Origin: a virus
Taxonomy: Duplodnaviria; Caudoviricetes
DNA length: 43,706 nt
Reading direction: 5' to 3' (one strand)
Virus record (IMG/VR): IMGVR_UViG_3300049889_000047
Span: 1 to 43,706 of that record
In this document: piece by piece, positions 7,890-43,430 of the stretch
How the letters are laid out: each line of letters starts with the position of its first letter
Numbering within the stretch: position 1 is the first letter of the stretch
The notes under the pieces: generated by a model
Database searches by the model: none
Seen by the model: only the letters and a program-made list of their open reading frames with translations
What the model was told of the DNA's origin: nothing
Made by a program: the position numbers and the translations under genes

Positions 7890-7927
7890 TTGCGTGACAG
7901 TGCAGCCTGTGATAGCATGAGGTTATG
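7890..7927 (+). promoter_or_regulatory. Conserved leaderless promoter element
   Basis: TTGCGT-gacagtgcagcctgtga(17)-TAGCAT-6 nt-ATG. Confidence 0.8.
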
Positions 7928-20369: not shown

Positions 20370-20394
20370 AAATCCCTCCCTGTATCATGTAGTT

Positions 20395-23741: not shown

Positions 23742-23751
23742 GCAAGCTCCC

Positions 23752-23791
23752 TTGCTCTGAGAGTACAGTCTGTGGTAGTATCTGAACTATG
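23752..23791 (+). promoter_or_regulatory. Conserved leaderless promoter element
   Basis: ctccc-TTGCTC-tgagagtacagtctgtgg(18)-TAGTAT-7 nt-ATG. Confidence 0.85.
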
Positions 23792-23932
23792 GAGCGAAGC
23801 AAACAACAACCTATCTACCGTGAAACTTACTCGTGGTGCCAGATGTGTGGTAAAGAAACTATCTGTAATAGATACTGTTTAGACCATCAACCAGCTACAG
23901 AATCCCTAGCCCGAGTGACAGACCTTCAGTAG
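23789..23932 (+). CDS. 47-aa antisense Cys-rich mini-protein (not in ORF track)
   Basis: MERSKQQPIYRETYSWCQMCGKETICNRYCLDH..., directly after the promoter. Confidence 0.65.
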   Translation: MERSKQQPIYRETYSWCQMCGKETICNRYCLDHQPATESLARVTDLQ

Positions 23933-25094
23933 CAGTCGGGATGCGCGTTGTGATCGTACCGAGCTGGTTAGCCACCAGTGGGATCATAATGGTGTCCAGC
24001 ATACAGCGCTGCAACGGGAAGCCAGGGCGCACGCTGACATCGAGTGGATCGTTGCATTCTAGCGCCGGGTTACAGATGGTCGAAATCGTGAACGTCTCTG
24101 GCAACGCAATGTATCGCCGTAGCAACACCTCACCGGCCAACTCGACATCAGCGTCTACCTGCAGCAATGGCGAACTGTAATAGGTCGGTGATGGTCCGAA
24201 CTGCGGGAATGTCGTCTTATTCCACGCCAACGGTGAGTTGGAGTCGGCATTAAAAGTAACGATGAAATCTGTGATGCTGGACGGATCAGACCCGTACGCC
24301 GTTACTATGTTGTGCACGTCAGTGCGCTTAACGACTCGCTTAACAGTGGAGATAGCACCACCAGTGCCACCCTGTAATGTAGCAACCGGATGGCTGAAGT
24401 CAAACTTCAGCGAGTAGACAATCATCTCACCAGCATTGTTGAACCGAATACCCGCGTAGTAAAACTTGATGAGCTGTGCCAAATAAGCGTATGAGTCATC
24501 TTCGACTATCTGATCACCAATGATAGTAATAGCGTCAGGATCATAACCAGACCAATAGATGGGCACCCGAGCATTGAGATACATCCCATAGCCATCGGGT
24601 GACAATCCCGGATAAGTGGCTTGCTGCGGTATGGCTATTCCATTGACGAGTCGTTGAAAGACGTTGCGGTGCGAGTCACCATTGTTAAGGGGGAGCGGAA
24701 AAACTAAACGATTTTGCTGGAGCTGACTTATTCTGTCTAAACAAGTAAGCACAATCGGCCCATAAGGTGCATCATCTTGACTCGCCTGCTCAATTCGGTG
24801 ATAGCCTAAGGGCACAAGCTCTTTATCACCATTAGCAAACTCAATACCCCGAGAGATGTAAATCTCTTGACCAAAAGGCTGTACTTGATCCCAATACTGG
24901 CCTGGAATCGTAATTGTTAGGGTGCTTTTGATATCGCTCAAGCTCTGGATTGTTACGTTACCTGAGATCACCGGTACCTCTGTACCAGTCGGGTCTGTCC
25001 CAAACTGCGGCACCGGATTACATAATACGGCCTTAACGGCGATCTTATGTGGCCCTTGTAGAGCACTCAGGAATCGAGAACTAACTGAGTGCAC
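23895..25094 (-). CDS. Minor tail (baseplate hub-like) protein
   Basis: VSSRFL.AL.G.H, PFGQE.YI.RG, VPLG, NPALE..D motifs. Confidence 0.75.
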   Translation of the reverse strand: MHSVSSRFLSALQGPHKIAVKAVLCNPVPQFGTDPTGTEVPVISGNVTIQSLSDIKSTLTITIPGQYWDQVQPFGQEIYISRGIEFANGDKELVPLGYHRIEQASQDDAPYGPIVLTCLDRISQLQQNRLVFPLPLNNGDSHRNVFQRLVNGIAIPQQATYPGLSPDGYGMYLNARVPIYWSGYDPDAITIIGDQIVEDDSYAYLAQLIKFYYAGIRFNNAGEMIVYSLKFDFSHPVATLQGGTGGAISTVKRVVKRTDVHNIVTAYGSDPSSITDFIVTFNADSNSPLAWNKTTFPQFGPSPTYYSSPLLQVDADVELAGEVLLRRYIALPETFTISTICNPALECNDPLDVSVRPGFPLQRCMLDTIMIPLVANQLGTITTRIPTATEGLSLGLGIL

Positions 25095-25098
25095 TCAC

Positions 25099-25566
25099 TT
25101 ACCTCCGATTAGTAGCTCTCCATTGCTGCTTATAGTGCGGCCTACATAAACCATTAGCACAGTATTTTCTCTCACAGCCACTTACTGAGCAGACTTTAGG
25201 GAGCTTCCTGTCATACACTCGGTGACACTTAGTGCAGAGAGGCATGTAGTGCTGTACTTTTAAGCTGTATTTTAACAACGGACCACCGCGTCGAGCTGGT
25301 CCGATTAGTTCCTCAGGATCTTTCCCATCATAAGCCCAGTTCTCTGCCTGACAACCGCAGTGCTGACAAAGATACTGCGCTATGTTTCCCTTAGCCGCTC
25401 TAACTCGAATATGCGCGCCATGGTATTGCACATCATCATACCTGTTATTATGCGTAATAAGCGGATCACCATAACGAATAAAACGTGCATAGTGTTTTAT
25501 ACAAAAACTAAGCGAATGATGAGCATCCTCGCAGCCATCGACAGAGCAAGTTCGGGTACCCTTCAC
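25099..25566 (-). CDS. HNH-like endonuclease with CSVDGC zinc fingers
   Basis: CSVDGC...C.KHY.R..RYGDP, AH.RV...G, Y.PLC..CH..YD. Confidence 0.75.
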   Translation of the reverse strand: MKGTRTCSVDGCEDAHHSLSFCIKHYARFIRYGDPLITHNNRYDDVQYHGAHIRVRAAKGNIAQYLCQHCGCQAENWAYDGKDPEELIGPARRGGPLLKYSLKVQHYMPLCTKCHRVYDRKLPKVCSVSGCERKYCANGLCRPHYKQQWRATNRR

Positions 25567-25662
25567 GGGTAGCCCCCTTCCGGTGAGGTCGGACAGGTGG
25601 GTCAGGGTCTGGCAGGAGTTGACCGCTCCTGCTAGTCCCGTACTACGTCAAACTCTACCGCA

Positions 25663-25863
25663 TCAGAGCCTCAACCATGATGGGTCAGGGTTGCTGCAAA
25701 CTGAGCCATCCTTGTGTTGTGGGTGCTGCCACTCAGTGCACTGCCGACAGCACATAGTTCTCGGAGGCTCGCACCGCAGACCATGCGTTGAGCAGCATAA
25801 GCCAGCGTAGTTACCTGCCGGTAGTGTCTGGCGTAACTTCTCACGTTGCCAGGAGTACATCAC
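25663..25863 (-). CDS. Small Cys-rich hypothetical protein
   Basis: Start overlaps the upstream stop. Confidence 0.5.
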   Translation of the reverse strand: MMYSWQREKLRQTLPAGNYAGLCCSTHGLRCEPPRTMCCRQCTEWQHPQHKDGSVCSNPDPSWLRL

Positions 25864-26204
25864 AAAGATTGCCTCACAATATAATCACGGTGTGCACGCT
25901 GTGCTTTCCTTAACTCAACATCTGGATGATTTTCGCCAACAATAGTATCTAAAATTGTCACAGCAGCAATAATAATGACAACAACACCAAGGCACCCAAC
26001 TGTGATTGATGCTGCAGCCCAACCTGCTGTGTCTACGTGATGTAAAGATCCTTCTGAACCTATATAAACTCCAAAAGCAATAAGAGCTAAGAAAAACGAC
26101 AGAAACACAGCAAACACACGCACCCAACGCTTATACGAACACACTGATATCCGCGCATCATCAAGTGCATCAAGTAAATGCTGTTCTTCCAGTGGGTCAG
26201 CCAT
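25860..26204 (-). CDS. Inserted AT-rich 2-TM membrane protein with its own leaderless promoter
   Basis: tgcga-TAGAAT-6 nt-ATG on the - strand; two TM helices. Confidence 0.65.
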   Translation of the reverse strand: MADPLEEQHLLDALDDARISVCSYKRWVRVFAVFLSFFLALIAFGVYIGSEGSLHHVDTAGWAAASITVGCLGVVVIIIAAVTILDTIVGENHPDVELRKAQRAHRDYIVRQSL

Positions 26205-26227
26205 GGGGATATTCTATCGCACTAGCG

Positions 26228-27646
26228 TTACGACACTCCTACCAGCGCGTCAGCAGGAGTACCTTGCAATGCGAGTACTGCAGACCAAGTGGCGTTCGCC
26301 GCAAGCTCAGCACTCCAATCAGTGTACTGAGTGATCAAAGTCGCCCATGTAACCGTAGCGCCTACGATTGCTAAGTCAGGCATACCGACCTCAGTCAGCG
26401 GCACAGTAATCGTATTTCGATGAGACAAGTGTGCTGGCTTGGCATAATTGTAGGTCCCGACTCCTGCATACATACTCTTCAGTGCTAGATTCACTGGAGT
26501 CTGCAGCAACAGAATGATACCTAACGACAGAACTAGATCTACCGCTGCTACCTCAATATCATCTTGTGTGAACAGCGAGATAGTGACTGTTCGCGGCGCG
26601 TGTGTGTCGGTTGATGCAATAGCGGTGCGCTTGCCGACGATCGGGAAGAATCCGAGTCGCGTAGTACGCTCCGTCTCCTCCCAGCCTATCAACATAACCG
26701 AACGGTTGAGATAGGGAGCGCTGGGAAACTTCAGCCACACTGCGGACATCGTCGGAGTGATCTGCGCGCTCGTACGGGTCACGTAGTCGGCGTTACGCAG
26801 TGCCACCGCAGCGCCATAAGAGATCGCAGCCGCTCCGCCAGTCACGACGAACGCTCCTGCAGCTACTGCAGCTGGTGTCGTCAACAGCTGGTAATCCCAG
26901 ACCAGGCCGGCATCCAGGCCAGCGGTGCTCACCGGTTCACCGATCTCCGTAGCGCCCGAGACAGTGGCTACGCCGGTCCAGTCGTCAGCCTTCCACCCGA
27001 GGTAGAGCACCGCGGTCCAGTTCGTCTCGACACCAGCCATCGGCGGATAAGTGATGTTCTGAGCGCTTGGGTTGAGCTGGTAGGCGATTGCGGCCGGCGT
27101 GCGCTCGCAGTTGCGAAAGCACGCCATCTGAGCGATCACGTCGCTGCCAGACGCTCCGGTGACACCGCCCGTGACACTGACAGTCGGGGTGCTCTCACTG
27201 CTCAGAGCCCGTTTGCCGAACAATCCGATGTTGTCGGTCTGCATCATGACAGTCCAGCCAGCAGGGCATACCACCGTGCCAGTGCCAGAGTTGCGGATGC
27301 TCGCCCAGATCACCAGCAGGTCACCTTCGGCATAGCCCACCGGCACAGTCGGGGACACCGCGGTACCACTGGCGCTGACCGCTGTGCTCGACGCTACGAA
27401 GGTTGGCAAGCCGGTGTCGACCGCGGACACCCGGTAGTAGTTGATCACACCAGGAGCGAACTCGTAGTCAACAAGGCTCGCTGCGGTGCTGACGATCGGT
27501 ACCGCGCTGCCGCCACGCACCTGCGACCAGTGGATCTGATCAACACTGACCTCGAACAGTGCTACGTCAGCTGTCGCAGCCAGCGAGGTCGCCGACAGCA
27601 GGATTCTCGCTGTGGTGTCGTCGTATGTAAGAGACAGTGAGGCCAA
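26228..27646 (-). CDS. Distal/minor tail protein
   Basis: First large gene after the tape measure; DYEFAPG, WLK.P..P.LN. Confidence 0.75.
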   Translation of the reverse strand: MASLSLTYDDTTARILLSATSLAATADVALFEVSVDQIHWSQVRGGSAVPIVSTAASLVDYEFAPGVINYYRVSAVDTGLPTFVASSTAVSASGTAVSPTVPVGYAEGDLLVIWASIRNSGTGTVVCPAGWTVMMQTDNIGLFGKRALSSESTPTVSVTGGVTGASGSDVIAQMACFRNCERTPAAIAYQLNPSAQNITYPPMAGVETNWTAVLYLGWKADDWTGVATVSGATEIGEPVSTAGLDAGLVWDYQLLTTPAAVAAGAFVVTGGAAAISYGAAVALRNADYVTRTSAQITPTMSAVWLKFPSAPYLNRSVMLIGWEETERTTRLGFFPIVGKRTAIASTDTHAPRTVTISLFTQDDIEVAAVDLVLSLGIILLLQTPVNLALKSMYAGVGTYNYAKPAHLSHRNTITVPLTEVGMPDLAIVGATVTWATLITQYTDWSAELAANATWSAVLALQGTPADALVGVS

Positions 27647-27691
27647 GGAAAAATACTCCAGTCCTCTAGTTCACCCGTGCGGAGTAACAGC

Positions 27692-27730
27692 TAGCTTCAC
27701 AGTGCAGTCTGTGGTAGTGTCTGGTCTATG
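27692..27730 (+). promoter_or_regulatory. Conserved leaderless promoter element
   Basis: TAGCTT-cacagtgcagtctgtgg(17)-TAGTGT-7 nt-ATG. Confidence 0.8.
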
Positions 27731-27928
27731 ATCGAACTTGAGATTCCTGAAGCTGCTTTCAACGCTGGTGCACAAGCTGAGAACTCCGATGATTCAATCA
27801 GTCTTGCTGCACCTTTGATTGTAGCTGCTGAGCTACGTCGCCTTATTGCTAAAGGAGAAACAAACGCAGGCTATCTACGCTTACGCGCTGATGAGCTAGA
27901 GCAAATCACCTCAAAGCAACACAGCTAG
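27728..27928 (+). CDS. Antisense-inserted small protein
   Basis: Directly after the promoter; VAAELRRL...LRADEL. Confidence 0.7.
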   Translation: MIELEIPEAAFNAGAQAENSDDSISLAAPLIVAAELRRLIAKGETNAGYLRLRADELEQITSKQHS

Positions 27929-28024
27929 CCGGATCATGCTCACGCTGGTCGACTGGCTGGTGTAGCTCGTGGCACACCGCACCACAGCAATGCTGATGCC
28001 GGCGAGCGCGGCGGTGTTGCGGCA

Positions 28025-29218
28025 TCAGACGATGGACCCGCGGCCCATGCGAGCAGCTACCGCAACACCTTGAGTCATCATGCTGATCTGGTTAGTGACC
28101 ATATCCCTTAGCTCCGTCTCCCCGATCTTCACTGTGACCTGATGGAAGTGTGTGCCCCCCATAGCTGAGTTAGGCGTAATGAAGCCACTGCCGCCCATGC
28201 GCAGGATCTCGGGACCGTGCTCGCCTACGAGGTAGCTCTTGCCACCCATCACGGAACCGCCCATAGCTTTGCCACCACCGAAGATCGATGAGAAAAACGA
28301 TCCGATGCCGTGGAGAATGCCACTGAAGAATCCTCCAATGCCGCCACCGCTACTGGTGCTGGTCGTGCCGCCACCAGCGGCTCCCGCTACACCGCCGATC
28401 GCACCTGCGCTGCTGGTGATGCCACTCAGCCCTGACAGGATCGGGGCTATGAAGTTCATAATGTCGCCTAGCCAGCCCATCAACACCTGCAGCAGTGGCA
28501 GTAGGCTGATCAGGATATTAGCAAAACTGGTGAACAGTGAGATCATGGTCGGTAGCATGGACTCGATAATCGGCAGGATTTTATCACCCATACCGCTGAA
28601 CGCAGTCATCCAGTTCTGAATCGCGGCTATCACCTGAGGCTGCAGCAAGAACTGAACCAGCTTCTCACGCAGATCACCTAGTGAAGTAGCGATACCACCC
28701 AAACCAGTACCAAGAATCGGGAAATATACTTGTGCTAGCTGAGTGACATCACCAGAGAAACCAGCCCAGAAACCTTGCTGAATAATGCCATACAGATTCT
28801 TGAGCTGTGGTTCTAGCAGCCGCACCGACATAACGGCATCTTTCATAGCCGGTGCCATGTTACGAGTTGCCGCTACAAACTCTGCTGGTGATGCCGCACT
28901 GATAGCTGTCGAGAAATTCGCCATCGCCATCTGAGCGATGTTGATCGGGTTTACTAACGCAATCAAGAAACCAGGAATAATAAGGAATATCTTAGCTATC
29001 TTGCCCAACGCATTGAACACGCCATTAACCAACGGCTTGATATTGCCAGTTAACGCAGCTCCGAACATCTTGCCAACATTAACAACAGCGTCACCCATTT
29101 TACCGAGAACAGCAGTCGCTTGTTTAGTAGACGCAATAAGGTTGCTAACAGATCCCTTAAAATTGATGAAGACAGTTCGTTGAGTGGCCATTGCGCCACT
29201 AGCGGAGGCAGCAGTCAC
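28025..29218 (-). CDS. Tape measure protein (short, 397 aa)
   Basis: Amphipathic helical body; C-terminal GKAMGGSV.GG.SYLVGEHGPE motif; synteny. Confidence 0.8.
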   Translation of the reverse strand: MTAASASGAMATQRTVFINFKGSVSNLIASTKQATAVLGKMGDAVVNVGKMFGAALTGNIKPLVNGVFNALGKIAKIFLIIPGFLIALVNPINIAQMAMANFSTAISAASPAEFVAATRNMAPAMKDAVMSVRLLEPQLKNLYGIIQQGFWAGFSGDVTQLAQVYFPILGTGLGGIATSLGDLREKLVQFLLQPQVIAAIQNWMTAFSGMGDKILPIIESMLPTMISLFTSFANILISLLPLLQVLMGWLGDIMNFIAPILSGLSGITSSAGAIGGVAGAAGGGTTSTSSGGGIGGFFSGILHGIGSFFSSIFGGGKAMGGSVMGGKSYLVGEHGPEILRMGGSGFITPNSAMGGTHFHQVTVKIGETELRDMVTNQISMMTQGVAVAARMGRGSIV

Positions 29219-29233
29219 TTACTGCGCCTCCTT

Positions 29234-30163
29234 TTATCCTGAGTAAACTTTAGCCATCCACGATGGATTTGAGCTGTACAGATCTCCTGGCTGTACCAAG
29301 TTCGATCCCGCTGCTTCGTCATAGCCACGAGACTCGGGACCTAACGTAGGCATGTAAGCAGTGTTACCTGCCCAACTACCGCCCTCGGAGCCACCTAGCG
29401 AATTGAAACCAGGTCCAGGTGTGTTGATGCCGCTAGCATTATCTTGCGCGACTGTTGTCCAGCCACCCAAGTTGCTCCAGTTTCCCTCAGTGTCACCCGC
29501 AGCTTCATCCTGACCTACCGTGCTGATTCCCGGCCCTAGGTCTGACCACACTGAATCATTGAATCCAGATCCGTAGTCAGCTTCTTGCTGCGTCGGAAAA
29601 TCCGACGGTTTGGTCAGAGCATCGCCGGTATCACCGCTGTTATCTCTACTGCCCCAGCCAGATAGCGACTTATCCATCGCTTGCTGAGTAGCCATCTGTG
29701 CGGGATCATCAGACGGTGGTGACCCACTCATAGCCATTGATGTACTTTGAGTCCATGGCGTAAAAGAAGCCGGAAAACCACTGGATGACGATGAGCTGGC
29801 ACCGAAAGGTCCGCTAGAGTCTGACGGAGGTATCGGCGGCACAGTCGATCCTACATCACTATCGGGCGGCGCATTATCCGATATCGCTGACTTCATGTTG
29901 TTAAGCATGTCTCCGGGTAGCGAATTATTAGCACCGAACATGCCTGACAAACTATTAGGATCGAAGTTAGTGCTGTATGCATCAGAGTAGGTGTTAGCGC
30001 CTTCGATCGGCTGCTCTGGTCCTACCGTAGCGCCGGCAACGCCTGTGTTCAGTCCCGCATCACCAGGATCAGGTGAGTCGAACTGGTATGCCTGACTATC
30101 TGACGCAGCTTGCGACCCTCCGAAAGCATCGCCGCCATCCGCGTCACCAATAGGGTCGCTCAC
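29234..30163 (-). CDS. Acidic Gly/Ser/Asp/Pro-rich low-complexity protein
   Basis: 309-aa ORF with RBS, between the chaperone and the tape measure. Confidence 0.7.
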   Translation of the reverse strand: MSDPIGDADGGDAFGGSQAASDSQAYQFDSPDPGDAGLNTGVAGATVGPEQPIEGANTYSDAYSTNFDPNSLSGMFGANNSLPGDMLNNMKSAISDNAPPDSDVGSTVPPIPPSDSSGPFGASSSSSSGFPASFTPWTQSTSMAMSGSPPSDDPAQMATQQAMDKSLSGWGSRDNSGDTGDALTKPSDFPTQQEADYGSGFNDSVWSDLGPGISTVGQDEAAGDTEGNWSNLGGWTTVAQDNASGINTPGPGFNSLGGSEGGSWAGNTAYMPTLGPESRGYDEAAGSNLVQPGDLYSSNPSWMAKVYSG

Positions 30164-30171
30164 AGCAGCTC

Positions 30172-30324
30172 CTACCCGCTCATCTGCCGACCTTCTGGAT
30201 CTTCTTTCTCACTCTGTTTGTTCAGTATCTCAATAGCGGTCTTAATGCCTCGCCAACCTTGATCCGCCCAAATATCGGGAGAAATCCCAGTAGCAACTGC
30301 AAGCTCTATAGTAAGCCGAGTCAC
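30172..30324 (-). CDS. Second tail assembly chaperone ORF (-1 frame; not in ORF track)
   Basis: YEAGSVTRLTIELAVATGISPDIW...; -1 frame overlapping the DPT end of the upstream gene; a GTGA overlap is also present. Confidence 0.65.
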   Translation of the reverse strand: MTRLTIELAVATGISPDIWADQGWRGIKTAIEILNKQSEKEDPEGRQMSG

Positions 30325-30716
30325 CGACCCGGCTTCGTAGGATCCATAGATTTATTATGTATATCCTCTAGCATGGACATCACAGCATCTGCGATATCTG
30401 TTGAGCTGCCTTCAGCTTCTGTCACTCTTTCGACAACCAACAACAATTCGTCATAACTTAGCGGCCCAGATACCTCATCAGGCTGAGGTAGAACATCGTA
30501 GTTATCCACAAACTCATCAAATGAAGGGACTTCGTGCTCACCTTGCTCTTTGAGTGCTAGATAAGCCAAGGAATAGCAGAAATCCATCGACGGGTTCTCT
30601 GCCATATTCCGCAACGTATTGCGTTGGCTACGCTTCTCCCATTTCTTGACATCACGCGCGCGTGCTGTCAGCATGAACGGCTTACCACCATCAGGAGTAA
30701 TCAGGAATGACTGCAT
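30321..30716 (-). CDS. Tail assembly chaperone
   Basis: Synteny; RD..KWE motif and DPT near the C-terminus. Confidence 0.65.
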   Translation of the reverse strand: MQSFLITPDGGKPFMLTARARDVKKWEKRSQRNTLRNMAENPSMDFCYSLAYLALKEQGEHEVPSFDEFVDNYDVLPQPDEVSGPLSYDELLLVVERVTEAEGSSTDIADAVMSMLEDIHNKSMDPTKPGR

Positions 30717-31234
30717 TACACTGATGTTCCTATCACTGTGATTTCATAGGACACGGACGTGCCCGCAGCTGAGTTAGCGATCTGCAGCAGGTCAGTCGAG
30801 CTAGCCGTCACCGGATACGCCGTAGCATCAGCAGGGCCAGCAACCCACATCGCGGTAGCACCTGGCCGCAGGATCGTAGTGTGCGTCGTCGCACCGAACA
30901 GGCCGGTGAACGTCGTAGTGCCGCCGCCTACCACCACGTTGTTAGTGTTAGCTGCCAGCGCTGAGATAATCAGAGCCTTGATCCTGGCGAAAGTCAACGT
31001 CGCACCTGAGCTAGGGTCGGCAAGCGCGCCGGCAAAATCGATGTTCTCCGTTGCACTGGCAGTCAGTGTCCGAGACGACCACCACGCGGTGTCGGCTGCG
31101 CCAGCGACGGTGCCACTGATCAGCGACGCACCGTAGGACCGCTGTAGGTTGGCACTGGACGTCCCTAGCGCCGGGGTGTTAGCGATCGTTGCCGCTACCG
31201 ACAGGCTGATCACTGTGGAGAGTGCCACAGACAC
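30716..31234 (-). CDS. Putative virion structural protein
   Basis: Ala/Thr/Gly-rich beta protein in the tail module. Confidence 0.6.
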   Translation of the reverse strand: MSVALSTVISLSVAATIANTPALGTSSANLQRSYGASLISGTVAGAADTAWWSSRTLTASATENIDFAGALADPSSGATLTFARIKALIISALAANTNNVVVGGGTTTFTGLFGATTHTTILRPGATAMWVAGPADATAYPVTASSTDLLQIANSAAGTSVSYEITVIGTSV

Positions 31235-31239
31235 CTCCC

Positions 31240-31278
31240 TTGTGTTGACAGTGCAGCATGTGATAGTCTGAGGTCATG
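31240..31278 (+). promoter_or_regulatory. Conserved leaderless promoter element
   Basis: ctccc-TTGTGT-tgacagtgcagcatgtga(18)-TAGTCT-6 nt-ATG. Confidence 0.85.
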
Positions 31279-31518
31279 AGTGATGAAGCGAGATGGACTC
31301 CCGATCAACAAACATCTGAAGTACGTTTCGGTCGTGGCCGTGCGCCTCGAATGACTTACATGCCTTGGTGGCGTAGTCAAGCTACTGAACTAGGGATGAC
31401 AGACGAAGGAACTTACCGACGCTGCCCTCGCCAAGGATGCCGTATCTGGGCTGGCCCTTATCGAAATACAAATGAAGCTAAGCAAGATGGCATGGATCAC
31501 GATCATTTAGCACACTAG
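31276..31518 (+). CDS. Antisense-inserted small protein
   Basis: Directly after the promoter; CTAG stop overlaps the stop of the major tail gene; CxxxxC...HxxxxH. Confidence 0.7.
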   Translation: MSDEARWTPDQQTSEVRFGRGRAPRMTYMPWWRSQATELGMTDEGTYRRCPRQGCRIWAGPYRNTNEAKQDGMDHDHLAH

Positions 31519-31979
31519 CCAACCCTAGTAAATGTTGGCACGCCAAGAATGAGCATTGTAATTGACGTCTCCTCAATCGTTCGCAGGTCGCCACCCACAG
31601 TTGGTGCCTTGATCACACAAGTTCCCGACCATCGAACATGCTCACCGACGACATCAGGCATGTGATCGAGAATGAAACCGGCATAAGCACGGCTGTTGTT
31701 CCACAGATAATCGGAGATCCCGCCGGCTCGCCAATCAGCAAAGAACTTCACCTGCAAAGCATAATCGTTGTCAGTTTCAGTCCTGAATTCGCTAAGGTTC
31801 CCTCCGTAACTCCAGGTCTTAGTTCCGTCTACCGTGTTGTTCAATATCGACCAGTTATTTAATTGCATCGACTGATCCACTCCGTTAAGAGTGAATACGA
31901 CTATTTTAAGCCTGCGAGTATGAACTAGCTGACCACTAGGGGCAGTCAAAGGACCGCCATAATAGATGGGCGCAGTCAT
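31515..31979 (-). CDS. Major tail protein (probable)
   Basis: Synteny; DW...GISDYLW, W.GT..I.AP.VGG motifs. Confidence 0.7.
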   Translation of the reverse strand: MTAPIYYGGPLTAPSGQLVHTRRLKIVVFTLNGVDQSMQLNNWSILNNTVDGTKTWSYGGNLSEFRTETDNDYALQVKFFADWRAGGISDYLWNNSRAYAGFILDHMPDVVGEHVRWSGTCVIKAPTVGGDLRTIEETSITMLILGVPTFTRVG

Positions 31980-31988
31980 TACGCCTCC

Positions 31989-32636: not shown

Positions 32637-32676
32637 ACTATAATCTTACCACAGACTGCCTCAAACTGCACTGTGT
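32637..32676 (-). promoter_or_regulatory. Variant of the conserved promoter element on the - strand, upstream of the endonuclease
   Basis: - strand acagtgcagtttgaggcagtctgtgg-TAAGAT-6 nt-ATG. Confidence 0.7.
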
Positions 32677-33062: not shown

Positions 33063-33076
33063 CTAACACCTCCCAC

Positions 33077-33115
33077 TAGACTGGCAGTGCAGGTTGTGGT
33101 AGCATTCAACATGTG
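33077..33115 (+). promoter_or_regulatory. Conserved leaderless promoter element
   Basis: TAGACT-ggcagtgcaggttgtgg(17)-TAGCAT-7 nt-GTG. Confidence 0.8.
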
Positions 33116-34679: not shown

Positions 34680-34687
34680 AGATCTCC

Positions 34688-34894: not shown

Positions 34895-34899
34895 GCTAC

Positions 34900-35805
34900 C
34901 TACTCTCGCGCAGCTTCCAAATACTCAGCCGCCTGCCGTAGTAACTTCGGATCATCTTTAAGATTCCCGATACCTCTATTGCAGATATCACAGAGAATCC
35001 CACGAACTTTGCCCGTATCATGGCAATGATCAATATGCCACATGCGCCCATTAGCTTCGGTACGGCAGATTGCGCAACACCCATCCTGATCAGCTAACAT
35101 CTGATCATACTGCGGAATCGTAATCCCATACTGACGCAGTATGTTCACCGCACGACAACAATCACGGCAATATGCGGCATTGACTCTATCATCTTCAGCA
35201 CGCAGTTCACCACATCTTGAGCAAGGCCCTTGCATGCGGTCTAACTTGTACTGAATATTGCATTCATTACAGTACGTCGGATGCCGACCGTCTCTCTTCT
35301 TACCACAGCGAGAACAATTCAGTAACGGCTTTTTACCACCCGTACGTTCTCGAGACTCTTTAGCCAACGCCCTATGGCACGGACGACAATACGACATATG
35401 CTCTAATCTAGGCGCTTCTTTACATCTAGCACATGGCTCTGTCGTTTTCTTATTACGGTCTAACCATTCTGTGCGTTGCAATCGACAACACGCCACACAG
35501 TAAGAGTGATGATTACCTGTCATCGAACCATTACATTGTGCGCAGGTTTTACGAGTCGGGCGTGTTTTTGCCCTGTATGCATCATTAGCAGCTTTAGTCA
35601 TCGCACGATAGCAATCTATGCAATACGATGGCGCAGGGCTATTACGAGGTGCGACATGACATCTCGCGCATGGTTTATCTGATCGTTGTTTACGATGACG
35701 CGCGACATACTCACGATTATTAAACAAACGACAATTAGCGCAATAGGACTCATTCACTCTAAGCGCCGCATGACAACGCGCGCATGGTTCAGTACTCTGA
35801 GACAC
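34900..35805 (-). CDS. Endonuclease VII-family HNH endonuclease with tandem CxxC repeats
   Basis: Six repeats of C(A/S)(R/Q)C...YC..C, then YGIT..QYDQML..Q.GCCAIC...IDHCHDTGKVRGILC..CN. Confidence 0.9.
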   Translation of the reverse strand: MSQSTEPCARCHAALRVNESYCANCRLFNNREYVARHRKQRSDKPCARCHVAPRNSPAPSYCIDCYRAMTKAANDAYRAKTRPTRKTCAQCNGSMTGNHHSYCVACCRLQRTEWLDRNKKTTEPCARCKEAPRLEHMSYCRPCHRALAKESRERTGGKKPLLNCSRCGKKRDGRHPTYCNECNIQYKLDRMQGPCSRCGELRAEDDRVNAAYCRDCCRAVNILRQYGITIPQYDQMLADQDGCCAICRTEANGRMWHIDHCHDTGKVRGILCDICNRGIGNLKDDPKLLRQAAEYLEAARE

Positions 35806-35985
35806 ATCGACCCCTTACTGGTCGGTCACGCCTCGGGGTGCTGACACACCGCCGGGGCCTTATTCTGCTTAGTGTACCAGAGTATCCGTAATCAAGTGCT
35901 GAATACCTATATCAATCTCAACAACATCAAATCTCACGCAGTGTGCACAAAACATCGTTATAGATAGCATGTTGACTACAGAGAG

Positions 35986-37407
35986 TCAGAACGCAGGCGT
36001 GATCAACCCAGTTCCACTGATCTTGGACATAGCATTTGCATATCGCCTCATGCTGTAAGCAAAGTACCCATACAGGACTAATAGGATGCCAAGGTTAGCA
36101 GCCGCGGGCTGCTCACAACGCAAGAAAACGGGCGCTGCGGGATCTTCCCAGAGGTGACACTCGTCAGTAGCGACTACATACGCTTCGTCCTGGTTGGTGC
36201 CCGCGCCCAAGTTTGTGGCTATGTTGTTGTCCACTACCGCAACCATGCCGTTCGGCAGAATGCCTCTCGCGCCACGACCATAGGAGGTGGCGTAATTCTC
36301 GCCGCCGCGGTTGTCAGCGATGTTCGGCTGACCAAACAAGGGCCACTGAGAAGACAGCTGGCTCTGCAGCCAGTACCAGCGCCGGGAGTGCATCAGCACT
36401 ACGTCAGGCTGTGCGAAGCCCAGCAGTGCAGCCTCAGTAGCGGCAGCGCCGGCAAGGAACTTCGGCCACACCTCGACACCGGACGGGTTGGCGTCGGTGT
36501 AGGTGATTGCTGCAGCCACCGCAGACAGCCCAGTCGTCGCCTGGTTGATCAGTGTTGAGTCCAGGTTGGTGGCGTAACGACGGAAAAGATCGTCCATCAC
36601 GATTTCTTCGATGCCGGTGCCACGTTCCGCAGCCTGCCGAGAGATGGTCTGTTGTCCGGCCGCAGTCTGGATATTCTCCGTCAACAGCGTGTCGTCCATG
36701 TTGGTTTCGGAGACTGACGCGTTTTCTGTTGCTTGCGCAGCTACTGATGCCGGTGTTGTGATCTGCGAGATGTTGACCGTCATACCACTAGCAGGCAGGT
36801 CGTGATGATTACAAACGTCCGCAAATGGTCGTAAAGCTGCCACAGCTGGTGCATACATATCGGTGAGGTACTGAGGCACCGTGAGGCCAGTGAAAGCTCC
36901 TGTACCTACTGCTCGCTCTAGGTACTGACCACGCTCGATCTGCTCTTCGTGCATATGCTTGGCAAGTCGTGTGCTGGCTCCCACATCACCGAAGAGGTGC
37001 TGACGAATCACATCCTGACAGAAAGCCGCACCCTTGCGGTCGTTGCCCTTGTGATAGGTACGCTCTTCACGACCTACCCGCGTCACCTCATCGTAAGCAG
37101 GTTTACGCGTGCCAGTTGGGGTGATCTCCCGCGCTGTCTTCTGGTCGCTCATCTCTTCGGACTTCAACCGAAGAATCTTTGCTAGCTTATTGTTGATACC
37201 CTCAATGTCATGCTGTACTTGCGTACCCGCGACTTCTAGCTCGGCAACACGATTGTCCTCTTCAGGAGTGAGGTTAGATCGCCCCTCCTGACGTGCTTGG
37301 TTGATGATTGCTAGAATCTCCATACGCATTTTAGTGCGGCGCTTCTCAGCGGCTTCCTTCTCAAACTCGGTACCTGCTTCCAGATCCCCGATGGTAGTAC
37401 TCGGCAT
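35986..37407 (-). CDS. Major capsid protein (HK97 fold, N-terminal coiled-coil delta domain)
   Basis: Size and synteny; VPQYL, RPFAD, Q..EN, AGQQTISRQ. Confidence 0.9.
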   Translation of the reverse strand: MPSTTIGDLEAGTEFEKEAAEKRRTKMRMEILAIINQARQEGRSNLTPEEDNRVAELEVAGTQVQHDIEGINNKLAKILRLKSEEMSDQKTAREITPTGTRKPAYDEVTRVGREERTYHKGNDRKGAAFCQDVIRQHLFGDVGASTRLAKHMHEEQIERGQYLERAVGTGAFTGLTVPQYLTDMYAPAVAALRPFADVCNHHDLPASGMTVNISQITTPASVAAQATENASVSETNMDDTLLTENIQTAAGQQTISRQAAERGTGIEEIVMDDLFRRYATNLDSTLINQATTGLSAVAAAITYTDANPSGVEVWPKFLAGAAATEAALLGFAQPDVVLMHSRRWYWLQSQLSSQWPLFGQPNIADNRGGENYATSYGRGARGILPNGMVAVVDNNIATNLGAGTNQDEAYVVATDECHLWEDPAAPVFLRCEQPAAANLGILLVLYGYFAYSMRRYANAMSKISGTGLITPAF

Positions 37408-37428
37408 AGCGGTCCATCCTTCCACTCA

Positions 37429-37627
37429 TTGACCGCCAGAGGCGGGGGTCTATAATCACTACATGACAAATGAACCAAGTAACTATGACTATGCAATGTC
37501 CGCGCTTAATAGAGGTACGTTAGATCACAATGAAACAGCAATAGTTTCAGCATTATTAGCAATAGCTGACGCCATTAAAGAAACAAAAGGATCTAACTAC
37601 ATTTACCATAAACCTGCAGTTAATTAA
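37429..37627 (+). CDS. 54-aa antisense-inserted gene (ORF 37463-37627) with its promoter (not in ORF track)
   Basis: TTGACC-16-TATAAT-6 nt-ATG; MTNEPSNYDY...ALLAIADAIKE...; TTAA stop overlap with the protease gene. Confidence 0.7.
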
Positions 37628-38448
37628 CCTTCGTCAGCGAGTAATGCGCTGCGAATCAAACTTATCGACCGACCGTTAGCTCGTTTCTCTTCAGGCTTAT
37701 CAAATCGAGCCTGTAGCTGAGTTAATGCTGCTCTAGCGGCACCGGAGGGGAGCCGGTCAACTTCGTTAAGGAGTCGATGCGCTCTTGCTGAAATGCTAGT
37801 GTGCGGGTTAGCTCCGTAATTAACCGCTGATACGTCTCCGCAGTGCAAGTCGAGTTCCAGCATGGTGAAGGTCGTGTACTCATCATCCCACTCACCTTCC
37901 TGCAGCATAGCGGCGAAACTCATCTGGTCGACACAACCGTCTTTGATCGCCACCATGAGATCCGAGACGTCAGTGCGCAGCGGATTGAGCCATGCTTCGG
38001 TAGCCAGGCCATCGTCACTAGAACTGAGTTTCAATGTGGCGTTAGTAGTACGCGCCATAGTCAGGCCCTTGTGGTTAACCAAAAACGCTACATCAGGTTG
38101 TCGGGACAATGATGCATCGAATGCTCGCCCACTGACTTTCTCGGTATATGGGCCGAACATATCCCACATCTCATACGGCGTCTCCACAACAGAAGCCACC
38201 CCAGATAGCCGGTGCCAGAGACTGTCACCGTCATCCTGTGGTGCTCTGGCACACTCGCACGTGGTATCAGAGCAGCCACGGCGGTGCAGGCCGGCTGTCA
38301 GCTGTGCGGGAAACGCCAGCGTGCGAGAGGTGCCAACATCGAGTGGCTGTGCTGAGCGTGCCAGCTTCAGCCCTGGCACGTCAGTGTTCTCGATCGCCTC
38401 CCGGCGCATACGTGCGGCACCGGCCCGCGTCACCTCTAGATCGATCAC
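37624..38448 (-). CDS. HK97-type prohead protease
   Basis: G.ASV.E.PYEM.D.FGPYTE, FLVNH.G, QMSFA, GDVSAVNYGANP; start moved to GTG 38448 after AAGGGAG. Confidence 0.9.
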   Translation of the reverse strand: MIDLEVTRAGAARMRREAIENTDVPGLKLARSAQPLDVGTSRTLAFPAQLTAGLHRRGCSDTTCECARAPQDDGDSLWHRLSGVASVVETPYEMWDMFGPYTEKVSGRAFDASLSRQPDVAFLVNHKGLTMARTTNATLKLSSSDDGLATEAWLNPLRTDVSDLMVAIKDGCVDQMSFAAMLQEGEWDDEYTTFTMLELDLHCGDVSAVNYGANPHTSISARAHRLLNEVDRLPSGAARAALTQLQARFDKPEEKRANGRSISLIRSALLADEG

Positions 38449-38458
38449 GCGGTCTCCC

Positions 38459-38497
38459 TTGCTCTGGCAGTACAGTCTGTGGTAGTATCTAGCTATG
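38459..38497 (+). promoter_or_regulatory. Conserved leaderless promoter element
   Basis: ctccc-TTGCTC-tggcagtacagtctgtgg(18)-TAGTAT-6 nt-ATG. Confidence 0.85.
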
Positions 38498-38683
38498 GCT
38501 AAAACACGCAATTTACACATAACTCACGATTGCTACACCGCTGCTATGGACGCATACCGAGATAGCGCCCTAGCCGACATCAAAAGTATGCAGCCTATAA
38601 ACACTGAAAAAGCAATTCAACTAGCTGTTGATGCGGCACTTAATGTTCACATTAAGCGTTGCTCGGAGCCTTCACACCACTAG
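38495..38683 (+). CDS. Antisense-inserted small protein
   Basis: Directly after the promoter; converges on 38652. Confidence 0.7.
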   Translation: MAKTRNLHITHDCYTAAMDAYRDSALADIKSMQPINTEKAIQLAVDAALNVHIKRCSEPSHH

Positions 38684-39176
38684 GCGTATTCGGCACTCCA
38701 GTGTCATTAGGAGCTGGTGTCGTCGAATTAGCGTTCGAGTCATCGTCATCAATCGTCAGATCACCATGCAGCGGCTCGAAATCATCGGCATCACCAGCGG
38801 ACTTCTGAATGCCTACTGCTTCGTCAGCGTCCTTCTTGTCCTTGTCTTTCTCGTCTTCGGTAGCGGCATCTTTCTTTACCGAGATCTTCTCTTTATCGTC
38901 AGCGAACAAAGAAGCATCATCCTTCTTACCGGTTTCCTTCGGCTTACCGGTGTTGCTCTTAGTGTCAGCTCGATCCAAGGTCGCAGCTCGCGCCAGCTCA
39001 CCTACGCGGAAACTGCTGGCCTGGCGCTGGCTGATCGGTGTCACGTTCTGCTGAGTAGCTGGCGGTGTCGCAGCACCCGGGCGAAACGTGCCGGTGCGTG
39101 CGCGGTTGACAGTCACGAGAGATCTCCCTTGCGTTGGCAATATGTAATGATGCTGACGGTGGTAAGTAATTTTCAA
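38652..39176 (-). CDS. Charged low-complexity hypothetical protein
   Basis: Asp/Lys-rich; between portal and protease; start uncertain. Confidence 0.55.
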   Translation of the reverse strand: MKITYHRQHHYILPTQGRSLVTVNRARTGTFRPGAATPPATQQNVTPISQRQASSFRVGELARAATLDRADTKSNTGKPKETGKKDDASLFADDKEKISVKKDAATEDEKDKDKKDADEAVGIQKSAGDADDFEPLHGDLTIDDDDSNANSTTPAPNDTGVPNTPSGVKAPSNA

Positions 39177-39227
39177 GAAGCCCTCTTGTCTTAATCACAT
39201 GCACGCCATGTGACGGAATTAGCTTCA

Positions 39228-40457
39228 CTAAGCATCACTCTCCGCAGGTACTGGAGCAGTAGGTGACGGTGTTGCCGGTCCAGGCTGCGGACGCGGAGGC
39301 CACAATTGGTCGAACTCAGCTCTATCCGCTGCGGTTAATGGCGGCCGATCATCGAGCAAGCGAGCTTCCGACGGCGTCAGCACACGGCCAGCCACCTGAA
39401 GGTTGATGATCTGTGCTTGCGTCAGCGGATCCATGCGAAGCAATGCTTTGGTGTTGAGTTTGCAGAACTGACGATTAGGCAGCAGCTTGTTAAGGCTGTT
39501 CTCACGACGGTTTATCGTTGGACCTAGACTCATCGTCAAGAACTGCAGGTTCCGCTGTGTTACATTTGCATAGGTCACTGCTGAGCCAGAGATAGCCGAG
39601 TCGATAAGGTCACTAGGGCAGTCGAAAAACCGTGCTATATCTGTAGGCCCTAACTTACGCGCCTCGATCCATTCCATTCCCGTCTGCTCAGCTTGGACCA
39701 TGTTGTATTCCCAGTCCTTGCCGGTGACCAGCACATCACCAGACGCTACCGATTCTTTAACCAATGCTTTGACATCTCGCATCTGGTCACGAGTCGGAGT
39801 AGGGAGCATGGTGTTCTGCAGGTGCCCACGCGGGATACCACCGTTAGTGAACCATGAGATAGCGAAGTCCTGAATACTCAGATGCTCACCGATACTCCAG
39901 GCAGCGTACATAATCGGAGACAACCCAAGGTGAAATCCTGCGACTGTGTACTGCTTCTCATGCCAAATCTGCCGCGGTGGGTAAGGATGGCCACGAATGA
40001 AATACTCAACTAACACATTGTCCACGATGTTCACCGACACCCAGGCGAGCGGCACCAGCTGAATCACAGCTGGTAAACCGAAGCCGTTACGTTCGGTAAT
40101 CAGACCAATGCTATTGCCTGCTCTGTCTAAGTCGAACTGAGTTGAATACATCCACTCCATATAGTCAACACATTCACCACCTGGACTGATCAGGATCGGT
40201 GGCTTGCTCACCTCAACGTCGGCAATGCCGTACTGACCCTTGCGATAGCAGTCGATCGGGAACGTCGAGATCAGGTTAGCCCGCAGTCGCAGGCACGCCC
40301 ACACAGCAGAGTGACGTAGTGCCGAGTCGTTGTTGATCATATGACCCGGTGCGAGTTGCATGCTCATGCGGTGCGGGATTATTTCAGCAGCCAGCGCACC
40401 GGGGTACTCCCCGAAATAGGGACCTTCGATGTTGGCTGTCCTGAAGAGCAAGCTCAT
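39228..40457 (-). CDS. HK97-family portal protein
   Basis: ALRHSAVWACLRL, GLSPI, F.NGG.P.G, IARFF, TYANV. Confidence 0.93.
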   Translation of the reverse strand: MSLLFRTANIEGPYFGEYPGALAAEIIPHRMSMQLAPGHMINNDSALRHSAVWACLRLRANLISTFPIDCYRKGQYGIADVEVSKPPILISPGGECVDYMEWMYSTQFDLDRAGNSIGLITERNGFGLPAVIQLVPLAWVSVNIVDNVLVEYFIRGHPYPPRQIWHEKQYTVAGFHLGLSPIMYAAWSIGEHLSIQDFAISWFTNGGIPRGHLQNTMLPTPTRDQMRDVKALVKESVASGDVLVTGKDWEYNMVQAEQTGMEWIEARKLGPTDIARFFDCPSDLIDSAISGSAVTYANVTQRNLQFLTMSLGPTINRRENSLNKLLPNRQFCKLNTKALLRMDPLTQAQIINLQVAGRVLTPSEARLLDDRPPLTAADRAEFDQLWPPRPQPGPATPSPTAPVPAESDA

Positions 40458-40792
40458 CCGCCGTCTTCACCACCAGAACGCACAGACCAATACATCTGAC
40501 CAGACTCAAATCCTGGGGGAGCTGTTAGATCGTGGCAATGATAACTAAACTCATCATGATCATGGCATACGCGGCCAGTCCACTGTGCCGGGTGACAATG
40601 TGGGTCACCAACCCAGTGAGCTAACGGAGACGAGTCACTCATCAAAGGCTCCTGCTCAACTCGAACACCAACGGCCAGGACAGCGCTACCGACAGCACCC
40701 GCAACCGGTCCAACTACATCTCCAGCTGCTCTACGTCTGTGCAGCTAGCGCACAGTGCAGTCTGGTCTTCGGAGCACGGCATGCAGTCTCCC

Positions 40793-40832
40793 TTGCTCTG
40801 GCAGTACAGTCTGTGATAGTATCTGAACTATG
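40793..40832 (+). promoter_or_regulatory. Conserved leaderless promoter element
   Basis: ctccc-TTGCTC-tggcagtacagtctgtga(18)-TAGTAT-7 nt-ATG. Confidence 0.85.
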
Positions 40833-41057
40833 AAACGCGAAGAAATGTACGACATCATTGTGGCACATATTCGGTGCAAAGCACGTGAAAAATTACGTCT
40901 CAGTGTTGATTTTGAGTGGTGTGATGAAGTACTCAATGAACTACGTAATGATAAATACCAAGAATCATTGCTTGGGCAAGCTGCGAAGCTAGTAACTACG
41001 CAGTCCGTTGTTCGTAAAGCTAATAAACTACCTATCTACACTGAAAGTAGATCATAA
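40830..41057 (+). CDS. Antisense-inserted small protein
   Basis: Directly after the promoter; 3' end overlaps the - strand stop at 41052. Confidence 0.7.
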   Translation: MKREEMYDIIVAHIRCKAREKLRLSVDFEWCDEVLNELRNDKYQESLLGQAAKLVTTQSVVRKANKLPIYTESRS

Positions 41058-41291
41058 GATCTTCTTTGCAACAGGGGGCGGTGACATCTCGCGCTGGCGT
41101 CGGGCGACGAGCGCAGCAGCGCCCAGCAGCACGACGCCGGTCACCGCCAGCCCAGCCCAGCCGATCCAGACAGCCGCCAGGAAGCCCAGCCCACCCGCTA
41201 CCAACAGGATGCCCAGCACCTCCAGCGCCAAGATCACGATCTCATGTATCAGCCGCACAGAGCAGGAGACTAACCATACTTGCATCAGCAC
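41052..41291 (-). CDS. Small 2-TM protein upstream of portal (start uncertain)
   Basis: Hydrophobic hairpin, commonly seen between terminase and portal. Confidence 0.6.
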   Translation of the reverse strand: MLMQVWLVSCSVRLIHEIVILALEVLGILLVAGGLGFLAAVWIGWAGLAVTGVVLLGAAALVARRQREMSPPPVAKKIL

Positions 41292-41662
41292 TACTTATCG
41301 GGGCTCTAGCTACATTCTTAATGCTAACTCTCACTGCTTGGTCATGCGTGCTGATTCAATATCACACAAGACAAATTATGGAATATCAAGAAACCCTTGT
41401 CAAGTTAGCTATCCGTCAGGACACTGCGGTGTCGTCCGACCCATCAGCTCATAGGCTAGCGTAGCCAAACCCCACCAAGCCAGTCCCGCTATACTCACGA
41501 TCAGGAGTTTTCTCATGACTAAGTCAGATTTCGATAAAGATCCAAAATGCACTTGTAATTACCCCGCACTGCCTATTCGTTTAACTATTTTTCAGTGGCC
41601 ATCATGAAACTTGTCCTCACCCAAATCGAAATCGCACGTCAATTTAACCAAAATTTGAGCAA

Positions 41663-43111
41663 TCAGCACATTGACTCCAGCACATCGTAAGCTCGCGCTC
41701 CGTACACCGCTAACCCATGCAACGCCAGTGCAATAGCGAGTACCGGCGATACGCTGTCCTCACTACGTCGGCGACTGAAACTCCACAGGCCATCACCGAT
41801 GTCTCGTTTCTGTGCGATTCGGATTGCTTCCGCTACACAAGGCTGGTTGAGGTGGCGCAACTCGTCTATCGCAGTCGTCGCCTTGTGCAGCGCACCGCAC
41901 GCCTGACCTAACTCGCGCACCCCAACTAGCTCAGGTTCGATGCCCGCAGCTCGCAGATCTTCCAGCAGCGCTCCTGCCGGTCCCGCTGGGTCAAGTACCC
42001 AGGCTGCCGGCGACCACTGCTCCTGCAGCTCTACAGCGCGTTCTACCAGCCACGTCACACCCTGGCGATGATCCAGCACATCGTCCCAGCTAGTAACCTC
42101 GACGTGCGGGATACCGTCAGACCGGTAGCCGCTGACCGCGATGCAGCCGTGCGACAGGTCTTCGTCTACTTCGATCGAGAACACCATCGGGCTAGTGATC
42201 ACCGACAGCGGGTCAGCCAACAATGACCATAGATTAAGATCAATGATCGGAGCGCCCAGCGGATCATCCCAGACACCTAAGACTTCTCTGGCAAACTGAT
42301 CTTCTGGCATTGATCGTTGTGCTATCTGCAGTGTCTTAATCTTGATACGTATTCCAACAGCAGGATTAGACTGTGCTAAAGCTGCCGGCATATTGGCGAC
42401 ATACTCAGGTGCTGCCTGGTAGACCTCACTCGGTACCGACCACTCGTAGTAGGCCAGCCCAGGATCTTTTGCTATCCCACGGTTGCGCACCCTGCGTAGT
42501 GCGTCAGAATCTTTCTGGCCAGCACTGGAGATATACCATATCTGCCAGTTCTGCCGAGCGAATAGAATCGGCATTAACGCACCTATCTGAGCCGCTGCCA
42601 ACGCGAACGCCTCATCCATAAGGATCACATCATATCCCGACCAGCCACGGGCACTCGTCGGGGTTCGAGCGACGAAATCAAGTCTCGCACCGGATTTCAG
42701 CGTAATAGAGTAGTCATTGGTAGACTGATTAACTCGTTTCACTTCACGATCAAGATCTGGTGCGCTCTCTATCATTCGGACGGTTTCTGCATGGATCTTC
42801 TGCGTTGTCGTCATGATATGACTGGTGTAGATCACTCGCGACTTCATCAAGAACATCGCATGCAGTGCAGCCACTTGCATGGTCACTGTCTTGATGTTTT
42901 GTCTAGGCACAACCAAGCCGACCTCAGGTGCTGACCACTCGCCGTCCTCCGTGTGCCCTAGTGCTCCCCACAAGATCCGCTTCTGGGACGGATCCATCGG
43001 CTTGTCGGTCAACGCAGCCAGCTCGATCGCATCAGCACCGGAGCTGGTGACCCACGGCGGCACCGACTCGATCCGCGGCACCTGACTGCCGACCAGCTTA
43101 GGAGCAGCCAT
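41663..43111 (-). CDS. terL: Terminase large subunit
   Basis: VPRQNIKT Walker A region, RG...D.ILMDEA Walker B, SSAG, NPA.G, F.RE.LG.W. Confidence 0.93.
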   Translation of the reverse strand: MAAPKLVGSQVPRIESVPPWVTSSGADAIELAALTDKPMDPSQKRILWGALGHTEDGEWSAPEVGLVVPRQNIKTVTMQVAALHAMFLMKSRVIYTSHIMTTTQKIHAETVRMIESAPDLDREVKRVNQSTNDYSITLKSGARLDFVARTPTSARGWSGYDVILMDEAFALAAAQIGALMPILFARQNWQIWYISSAGQKDSDALRRVRNRGIAKDPGLAYYEWSVPSEVYQAAPEYVANMPAALAQSNPAVGIRIKIKTLQIAQRSMPEDQFAREVLGVWDDPLGAPIIDLNLWSLLADPLSVITSPMVFSIEVDEDLSHGCIAVSGYRSDGIPHVEVTSWDDVLDHRQGVTWLVERAVELQEQWSPAAWVLDPAGPAGALLEDLRAAGIEPELVGVRELGQACGALHKATTAIDELRHLNQPCVAEAIRIAQKRDIGDGLWSFSRRRSEDSVSPVLAIALALHGLAVYGARAYDVLESMC

Positions 43112-43120
43112 CTAGCTCCC

Positions 43121-43158
43121 TTGCTTGACAGTGCAGTTTGTGGTAGTGTCTAAACATG
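43121..43158 (+). promoter_or_regulatory. Conserved leaderless promoter element
   Basis: ctccc-TTGCTT-gacagtgcagtttgtgg(17)-TAGTGT-6 nt-ATG. Confidence 0.85.
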
Positions 43159-43428: not shown

Positions 43429-43430
43429 AG

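Follow-up and report, generated by a model that had tools for sequence, protein, structure and literature searches.

The 43,706-bp contig analyzed here in its entirety (IMG/VR record IMGVR_UViG_3300049889_000047, hereafter the window) belongs to a tailed phage whose late genes, encoding terminase, portal, protease, capsid, tail, tape measure, and endolysin proteins, occupy the - strand from 43.7 to 10.7 kb, with an FtsK-like gene among others on a + strand arm. The closest terminase match from a cultured phage is at 37% and the nearest in GTDB, at 58%, is carried by a Pseudonocardiaceae metagenome-assembled genome contig, so the host is likely actinobacterial. Across this genome recurs a conserved ~40-bp element that a first-pass annotation had described as a promoter on one strand and a Shine-Dalgarno (SD) sequence on the other. 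We retrieved relatives, namely six loci at 92-93% identity in the terminase together with other motif-bearing contigs, and compared them junction by junction using the late genes as anchors; a complete relative genome, G001, spans 71,198 bp. The element census covered 13 records and yielded 66 distinct copies; an open reading frame (ORF) of at least 28 aa follows 57 of them.

All eight + strand copies of the first-pass annotation lie at the coordinates it gave and follow the pattern T[T/A]Gnnn-17/18 bp-TAGYNT, with the spacer motif (C)AGTRCAGnnTGTGR, or box, recurring as described save that the copy at 23752 reads GAGT instead of CAGT. When each was left out of the scoring matrix in turn, the eight scored 23.8-33.9 bits and ranked top among non-training sites, against a best score of 22.1 and a median of 11.8 in 50 Markov-3 shuffles. 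Two features had gone unrecorded. One is a ninth copy, a three-repeat form on the - strand at 32673, ahead of an endonuclease VII gene. The other is an ATG or GTG lying 6-7 nt past the TAGnnT hexamer in all eight copies and opening a + strand ORF of 47-114 aa; this spacing would place the transcription start at the start codon, a predicted leaderless arrangement. Leaderless genes are common in actinobacteria. Leaderless promoters have also been predicted for cluster O phages (PMC4351075). The element is very probably a leaderless promoter heading swappable cassettes.

Seven of the eight passenger ORFs in the window lie antisense between late genes, and passenger G+C content (0.39-0.51, in a set that includes one box-less ORF) contrasts with 0.49-0.59 in nine late genes. 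After removal of one chance-like match, the 57 passengers of the 13 records fall into 45 families. Shared passengers show ratios of nonsynonymous to synonymous substitution (dN/dS) of 0.01-0.26 in 12 of 12 pairs, indicating purifying selection and therefore real genes. Measured against the stop codon of the upstream late gene (n=49), 11 passengers overlap it by 4 nt, and the distance is at most 12 nt for 20 and at most 40 nt for 28. No common terminator for the cassettes was found: positions 23710-43706 hold 17 terminator-like sites versus 12.5 +/- 3.8 in shuffles, and such a site is absent from all seven element copies in that interval. A clear function could be assigned to just two passengers, each a DNA methyltransferase (C5 and N4/N6; L035 13538-14194, L034 13407-14498 (G002); L031 8666-8821 (G001)), and the C5 methyltransferase copy of G001 ends after 52 codons.

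Late-gene junctions carry different cargo even among close relatives whose terminases are 92-93% identical. The slot after the major tail gene holds seven different passengers in seven distinct genomes, while some junctions are empty, such as 23741 in G003, with a 16-bp spacer, and 33639 in the window, with no spacer. The first-pass annotation would have been undermined had insert-free relatives shown identical sequence at these junctions; they do not, as the empty junctions lack the spacer motif. Two passenger families each occur at two different slots, with likeness extending from the box through the passenger's stop, and the 90-aa family found between terS and terL in the window occupies the same slot in L004 and the post-portal slot in G001/L001. 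The slot at 39120..39227, which has no box in the window, holds box cassettes in G001, G002, L003, L004, and L011. The insert headed by copy 7890 is not present in G001; it is flanked by two versions of the 3' end of the cysteine desulfurase-like gene (7785-7879 and 8865-8959), a 95-nt repeat at 76% identity, and looks like the single-crossover integration of a circle. Elsewhere in the window, a 72-bp stretch at 27916-27987, in which neither a clear ORF nor a tRNA was found, is 94-97% identical in relatives, with cassettes inserted on either side. G001 carries ferritin-like and MbnB/TglH/ChrH (DUF692) genes on the cassette strand upstream of terS (45410-48403; L032 5410-8403), and a box cassette lies between them.

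Antisense leaderless cassettes also occur without a box, at 37463 and 20395 in the window and in loci of ~50% terminase identity (three in L082, three in L084, one in L044), with only one in 586 kb of 50 distant loci. Because such cassettes exist, the slot architecture is independent of the box, which forms a clade-specific layer on top. The passenger of the 37429..37627 cassette varies among relatives, and the slot at 20383..20667 is empty in G001 and G003. At 37429-37462 a G+C-rich inverted repeat lies inside the spacer of the canonical TTGACC..TATAAT promoter in a PeSL-like layout (see below), the promoter being kept at the capsid-protease junction while the passenger changes; a further box-less + strand unit lies between terL and the pre-portal gene (41483-41610; TATACT, AGGAG, ATG near 41516).

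The proposed dual nature of the element stands for six of the eight copies, those at 7890 and 27692 having no SD face. As first described, CTCCCTTG opens five copies and the copy at 33077 has CTCCC. The reported distance of 4-6 nt to a - strand start is not kept at 31234, where no nucleotide separates GTG from CAAGGGAG; the GTG that does lie 6 nt away is at 31228, in the same frame. A CTCC precedes the box by 12-17 nt in 39 of 49 copies, the other ten having none within 24 nt. A related proposal, that the element is a cassette end supplying a new ribosome-binding site (RBS), is supported at three junctions. At 33639, all four empty alleles lack an SD (duplex energy +0.4 kcal/mol against the anti-SD motif) and both filled alleles bring GGAGG (-10.8 and -10.2 kcal/mol); at 31979 the empty allele's GGAGG lies inside the upstream gene and filled alleles carry their own; at 23379 the strong GGAGG of filled alleles replaces a weak site. 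At other junctions the SD is the backbone's own and persists without a box, as at 39124, where CTCCCTTG recurs without the spacer motif and its SD is therefore part of the late-gene backbone. Since the backbone SD survives without the box, the single promoter/SD element resolves into two separable modules sharing a few bases, the -35 TTG being the CAA of CAAGGGAG. The - strand ORF at 40782 is 22 codons long in the window versus 48 in all seven relatives read.

We analyzed the box at sites picked solely by TGTGnTAnnnT and a start codon, avoiding circularity (n=61). AGTRCAG stands at the near offset in 51 of them, ten bases farther upstream in nine, and twenty in one, against a chance expectation of 0.0024 per offset. 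The box consists of direct repeats spaced 10 bp apart in a ~20-bp unit, which occurs in two registers offset by one helical turn, and promoters hold two, three, or four 10-bp units, the first reading YAGTRCAG and the later ones TGWGRYAR. This displacement of AGTRCAG by a helical turn argues for a protein site rather than a sigma determinant or a constraint of promoter geometry, and we consider it probable that the repeats are such a site. Middle units often lack TA and are therefore not spare -10 elements. The unselected n of TGTGnTA is always a purine in the 53 short arrays, and the eight longer ones have G or C there; in the latter, the TGTGnTA block need not be a binding unit. All 38 sites of the window, G001, and G002 overlap a TG..TAnnnT -10 element. 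Each genome has 14-15 array-bearing promoters, all box cassettes included, and in G001 a four-unit array lies between two divergent leaderless promoters where both arms start. Three-repeat late-strand promoters lie ahead of two endonuclease VII-like genes (window 32637-32673; L007 near 3670), and selfish nucleases may for this reason borrow the same control.

A candidate for the protein that reads these repeats is encoded in two relatives, where an element copy heads a clade-restricted 115-aa protein whose predicted fold matches those of Pukovnik Xis and BldC. This protein (G001 55284-55631) contains an insert of ~14 residues and lacks close relatives beyond the clade. From its fold and from the element copy ahead of its gene, it is the putative cognate binder of the box, and we favor, with moderate confidence, the reading that it acts there as a repressor. 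The two functions first offered as alternatives, a repressor or activator operator and a portable cassette end, each hold in part and coexist. Indirect support for the former comes from the two registers, from conservation that depends on position, from the four-repeat array, and from the element copy heading the Xis/BldC-fold gene.

We propose that the element heads, as a repeated part, swappable antisense mini-gene cassettes sited at late-gene junctions, and that it probably works as a leaderless host-sigma promoter, likely overlapped by an operator made of the 10-bp direct repeats. Soon after infection begins, the host RNA polymerase would fire the cassette promoters to produce small accessory proteins without need of an RBS, so that a cassette would cost ~40 bp of control DNA, and transcription would continue into the 3' ends of late genes. 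Next, the Xis/BldC-fold protein would polymerize head-to-tail over two to four repeats, covering the -10 or -35; its own gene, the arm promoters, and every cassette would be repressed jointly, leaving the late operon free to be read through. Recombination would exchange cassettes, acting in the shared box at one end and in the end of the late gene at the other. Aca proteins, which repress an inserted promoter, offer a functional parallel. A bolder version, which we regard as possible though somewhat doubtful, is a phage-wide plug-in standard. A single two-faced part of ~40 bp would make a slot for a leaderless antisense gene of nearly every late-gene junction, restore the translation start of the late gene, and place whatever gene arrives under one Xis/BldC filament, which would read two to four repeats as a graded timer and silence a dozen head-on promoters to license late transcription.

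Some observations weigh against regulation through a shared operator: the repeat units are loosely alike, first and later units sharing only RYAG, and box-less cassettes occupy the same slot type in the window and in relatives of ~50% terminase identity. These cassettes also fit an unlikely alternative in which the element is merely a copied promoter, its spacer homogenized by recombination as in PeSLs and its longer forms produced by 10-bp slippage, with no protein reader. Relocated passengers do share sequence starting at the box, and PeSLs are described as kept alike across ~100 bp and acting as recombination points (PMC2839356). A copied promoter would nonetheless predict even conservation, whereas invariant and free positions alternate here and two positions are purine-only; moreover, the sequence around the core differs in 52 of 53 copies, and the box is also found at core genes and at the arm promoter, which are not swapped.

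If a protein does bind, it could instead be a phage activator, whether the Xis/MerR-fold protein or another, that switches on the promoters of cassettes, replication genes, and regulators as a middle class by compensating for weak -35 hexamers, a role we judge distinctly unlikely. The -35 hexamers are indeed poor (TTGCnn, TAGCTT, GTGCAG), and the eight copies are absent from the consensus promoters listed; a repeat invariably sits directly upstream of the extended -10, and Xis2d is known to activate transcription (as cited in PMC12266134). However, in short arrays the second repeat lies over the extended -10 together with half of the hexamer, a position from which a bound protein would obstruct sigma; the strongest repeat shifts a full turn relative to the -10, and the candidate's own promoter has a box, so that its initial expression would need to be unaided. 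Very unlikely, in our view, is an operator for a host factor or another phage regulator serving a carrier or dormant state rather than an early-to-late switch. G001 encodes other possible readers (Lsr2, an HTH_23 protein, and a DUF2637-HTH protein) and G002 an extra HTH_17 protein, but the remaining G001 candidates have no upstream box. The exact 21-nt pattern has two single matches in 185,579 species genomes, both in non-actinobacterial records, and no host regulon is therefore visible. Nor does the complete G001 match PF00589 or PF07508, the tyrosine integrase and serine recombinase domains, in a search that did not include the cluster A repressor family or ParA.

The following comparisons draw on the accessible portions of the published descriptions. 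PeSLs of T4-type phages consist of a repeated host-sigma promoter before variable ORFans and are a proposed shuffling point (PMC2839356, PMC4122927); here too, a promoter of host-sigma type, as judged by its sequence, is repeated upstream of variable ORFans. PeSLs have a stem-loop terminator and their own SD and are found mainly in hyperplastic regions; those portions describe no operator. In contrast, the present cassettes are leaderless and antisense, one per late-gene junction, with a back-strand SD, a repeat array, and no common terminator. Starts 6-7 nt after the hexamer leave no room for a passenger SD, and instead of two flanking copies or mini-circles, a late cassette has a single copy and runs up to the stop of the upstream gene, with no general flanking repeat; the 7890 insert carries its 95-nt gene-end duplication in place of PeSL-type flanking copies. 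The noncontiguous operons of 80alpha (tha-1/ith-1; PMC11087260, PMC11034616) likewise nest an antisense gene with its own promoter in an operon, and mutually exclusive expression is expected in both, the late operon here being putatively read through. They number four cases with fixed partners, whereas the late operon here offers ~ten slots for swappable cargo under one shared promoter motif.

A regulatory likeness is to Xis and recombination directionality factor regulators, Apl of phage 186 (PMC7498355), BldC (PMC5859096), and D29 Gp36 (PMC12266134), small winged-helix proteins that use direct repeats about one turn apart. BldC and Pukovnik Xis bind such repeats head-to-tail (BldC: PMC5859096). 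Shared features include a variable repeat number (two, three, and four at 10-bp pitch here), an array between two early promoters, and precedent for repression by phage without need for excision; Apl, however, acts at one switch and att, and Gp36 at two sites, compared with 14-15 promoters per genome here. Cluster A stoperators, 13-bp sites mostly off promoters and bound by the two-domain repressor of temperate phages (PMC5712189, PMC9283540), resemble the box in being many, asymmetric, mostly co-oriented, and intergenic, with one overlapping an early promoter. The likeness to L5 stoperators suggested in the first-pass annotation is nevertheless not supported: GGTGG(c/a)TGTCAAG has no exact match in the window (best 8/13), TGTCAAG terminates only 1 of 57 ORF-heading copies, and every site lies at a predicted promoter. 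As a further difference, no integrase domain was found in the complete relative.

Conserved repeats before small genes, some among virion genes, are also known from the SAS/ESAS of cluster K (PMC3203893), the 17-bp repeats of cluster O (PMC4351075), and an unexplained, similar-looking 18-bp motif of Microbacterium cluster EC (PMC7302621). SAS/ESAS lie on the gene's own strand at the RBS, and were rejected as a model since the conserved core here heads an antisense leaderless gene at a variable SD-to-box distance of 12-17 nt. Cluster O repeats, unlike the box, are palindromic and mostly away from promoters; the structural operon of that cluster also includes leftward genes, among them one with a leaderless SigA promoter (PMC4351075). 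The EC motif lies upstream of the RBS in same-strand inserted genes. None of these repeats is described, in the accounts available to us, as heading swappable antisense cassettes, and a literature search covering few subscription papers and no supplements found no paper on swappable antisense leaderless cassettes with a shared operator.

Further features of these genomes lie outside the cassettes. An FtsK/SpoIIIE-like gene adjoins a DUF2637-HTH gene, with Lsr2 in addition (G001 L030 2738-5091 and 11645-11977; window 1-1473), the FtsK/SpoIIIE-like and DUF2637-HTH pairing being one also seen in actinomycete conjugative elements. Between the tail assembly and tape measure genes, a 309-aa acidic low-complexity ORF with no PHROG match (window 29234-30163) is conserved in G001, and the tape measure protein of the window has just 397 aa.

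Table 1. Element copies, passenger ORFs, and associated features, in window coordinates.
Feature	Position	Strand	Remarks
Element copy	43116..43155	+	SD complement, -35-like TTGCTT, two-repeat box 43129-43148, -10-like TAGTGT 43144-43149
SD of terL (ATG 43111)	opposite strand of copy 43116..43155	-	predicted
Leaderless passenger ORF, 90 aa	43156..43428	+	between terS and terL; dN/dS 0.09-0.15
Element copy	40788..40829	+	opposite strand is SD of short ORF at 40782
Leaderless passenger ORF, 75 aa	40830..41057	+	in none of 7 relatives spanning the slot
Slot without box	39120..39227	+	SD complement, TTGCGTTGGCA start, no spacer motif
Element copy	38454..38494	+	opposite strand is SD of head protease (GTG 38448)
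Leaderless passenger ORF, 62 aa	38495..38683	+	homologues in L003, L011; dN/dS 0.22-0.26
Box-less antisense cassette	37429..37627	+	TTGACC..TATAAT, leaderless ATG 37463, 54 aa, between protease and capsid genes
Element copy	33069..33112	+	opposite strand is GGGAGG SD for GTG 33062
Leaderless passenger ORF, 65 aa	33113..33310	+	GTG start; same gene in L018; dN/dS 0.09; stop overlaps head-tail connector gene stop by 4 nt
Ninth element copy, three-repeat form	32637..32673	-	box displaced 10 bp from -10
Endonuclease VII gene	31989-32636	-	late strand, headed by ninth copy
Element copy	31235..31275	+	opposite strand is SD for late gene from GTG 31228
Leaderless passenger ORF, 80 aa	31276..31518	+	4-nt overlap of its stop with that of the major tail gene
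Element copy without SD face	27692..27727	+	downstream of tape measure gene
Leaderless passenger ORF, 66 aa	27728..27928	+	homologue in L007; 9-bp direct repeat flanks cassette
Element copy	23747..23788	+	opposite strand is SD for GTG 23741
Leaderless passenger ORF, 47 aa	23789..23932	+	overlaps end of upstream tail gene
Box-less antisense cassette	20383..20667	+	TG-TATCAT, leaderless ATG 20395, 90 aa
Element copy without SD face	7890..7924	+	+ arm, after cysteine desulfurase-like gene
Three passenger ORFs, 114, 128, and 122 aa	7925..8960	+

The layout described here is an unusual combination of known parts, namely moron- or PeSL-type cassettes, noncontiguous operons, and Apl-type operators. 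Late operons of tailed phages are usually considered to accommodate only few insertions, yet at least a dozen junctions accept interchangeable antisense genes, with 45 mostly unknown families in 13 records. A compact part of this kind would solve three problems, providing expression free of an RBS, an intact late-gene start, and coordinated shut-off. If the Xis/BldC-fold protein binds the box, it would supply a concrete regulon for the unexplained intergenic repeats often seen in actinophages and, if this reading is true, an excisionase-fold protein would serve as a genome-wide switch in a phage without an integrase. The passengers themselves would constitute a set of small early genes worth screening for functions in host takeover or counter-defense.

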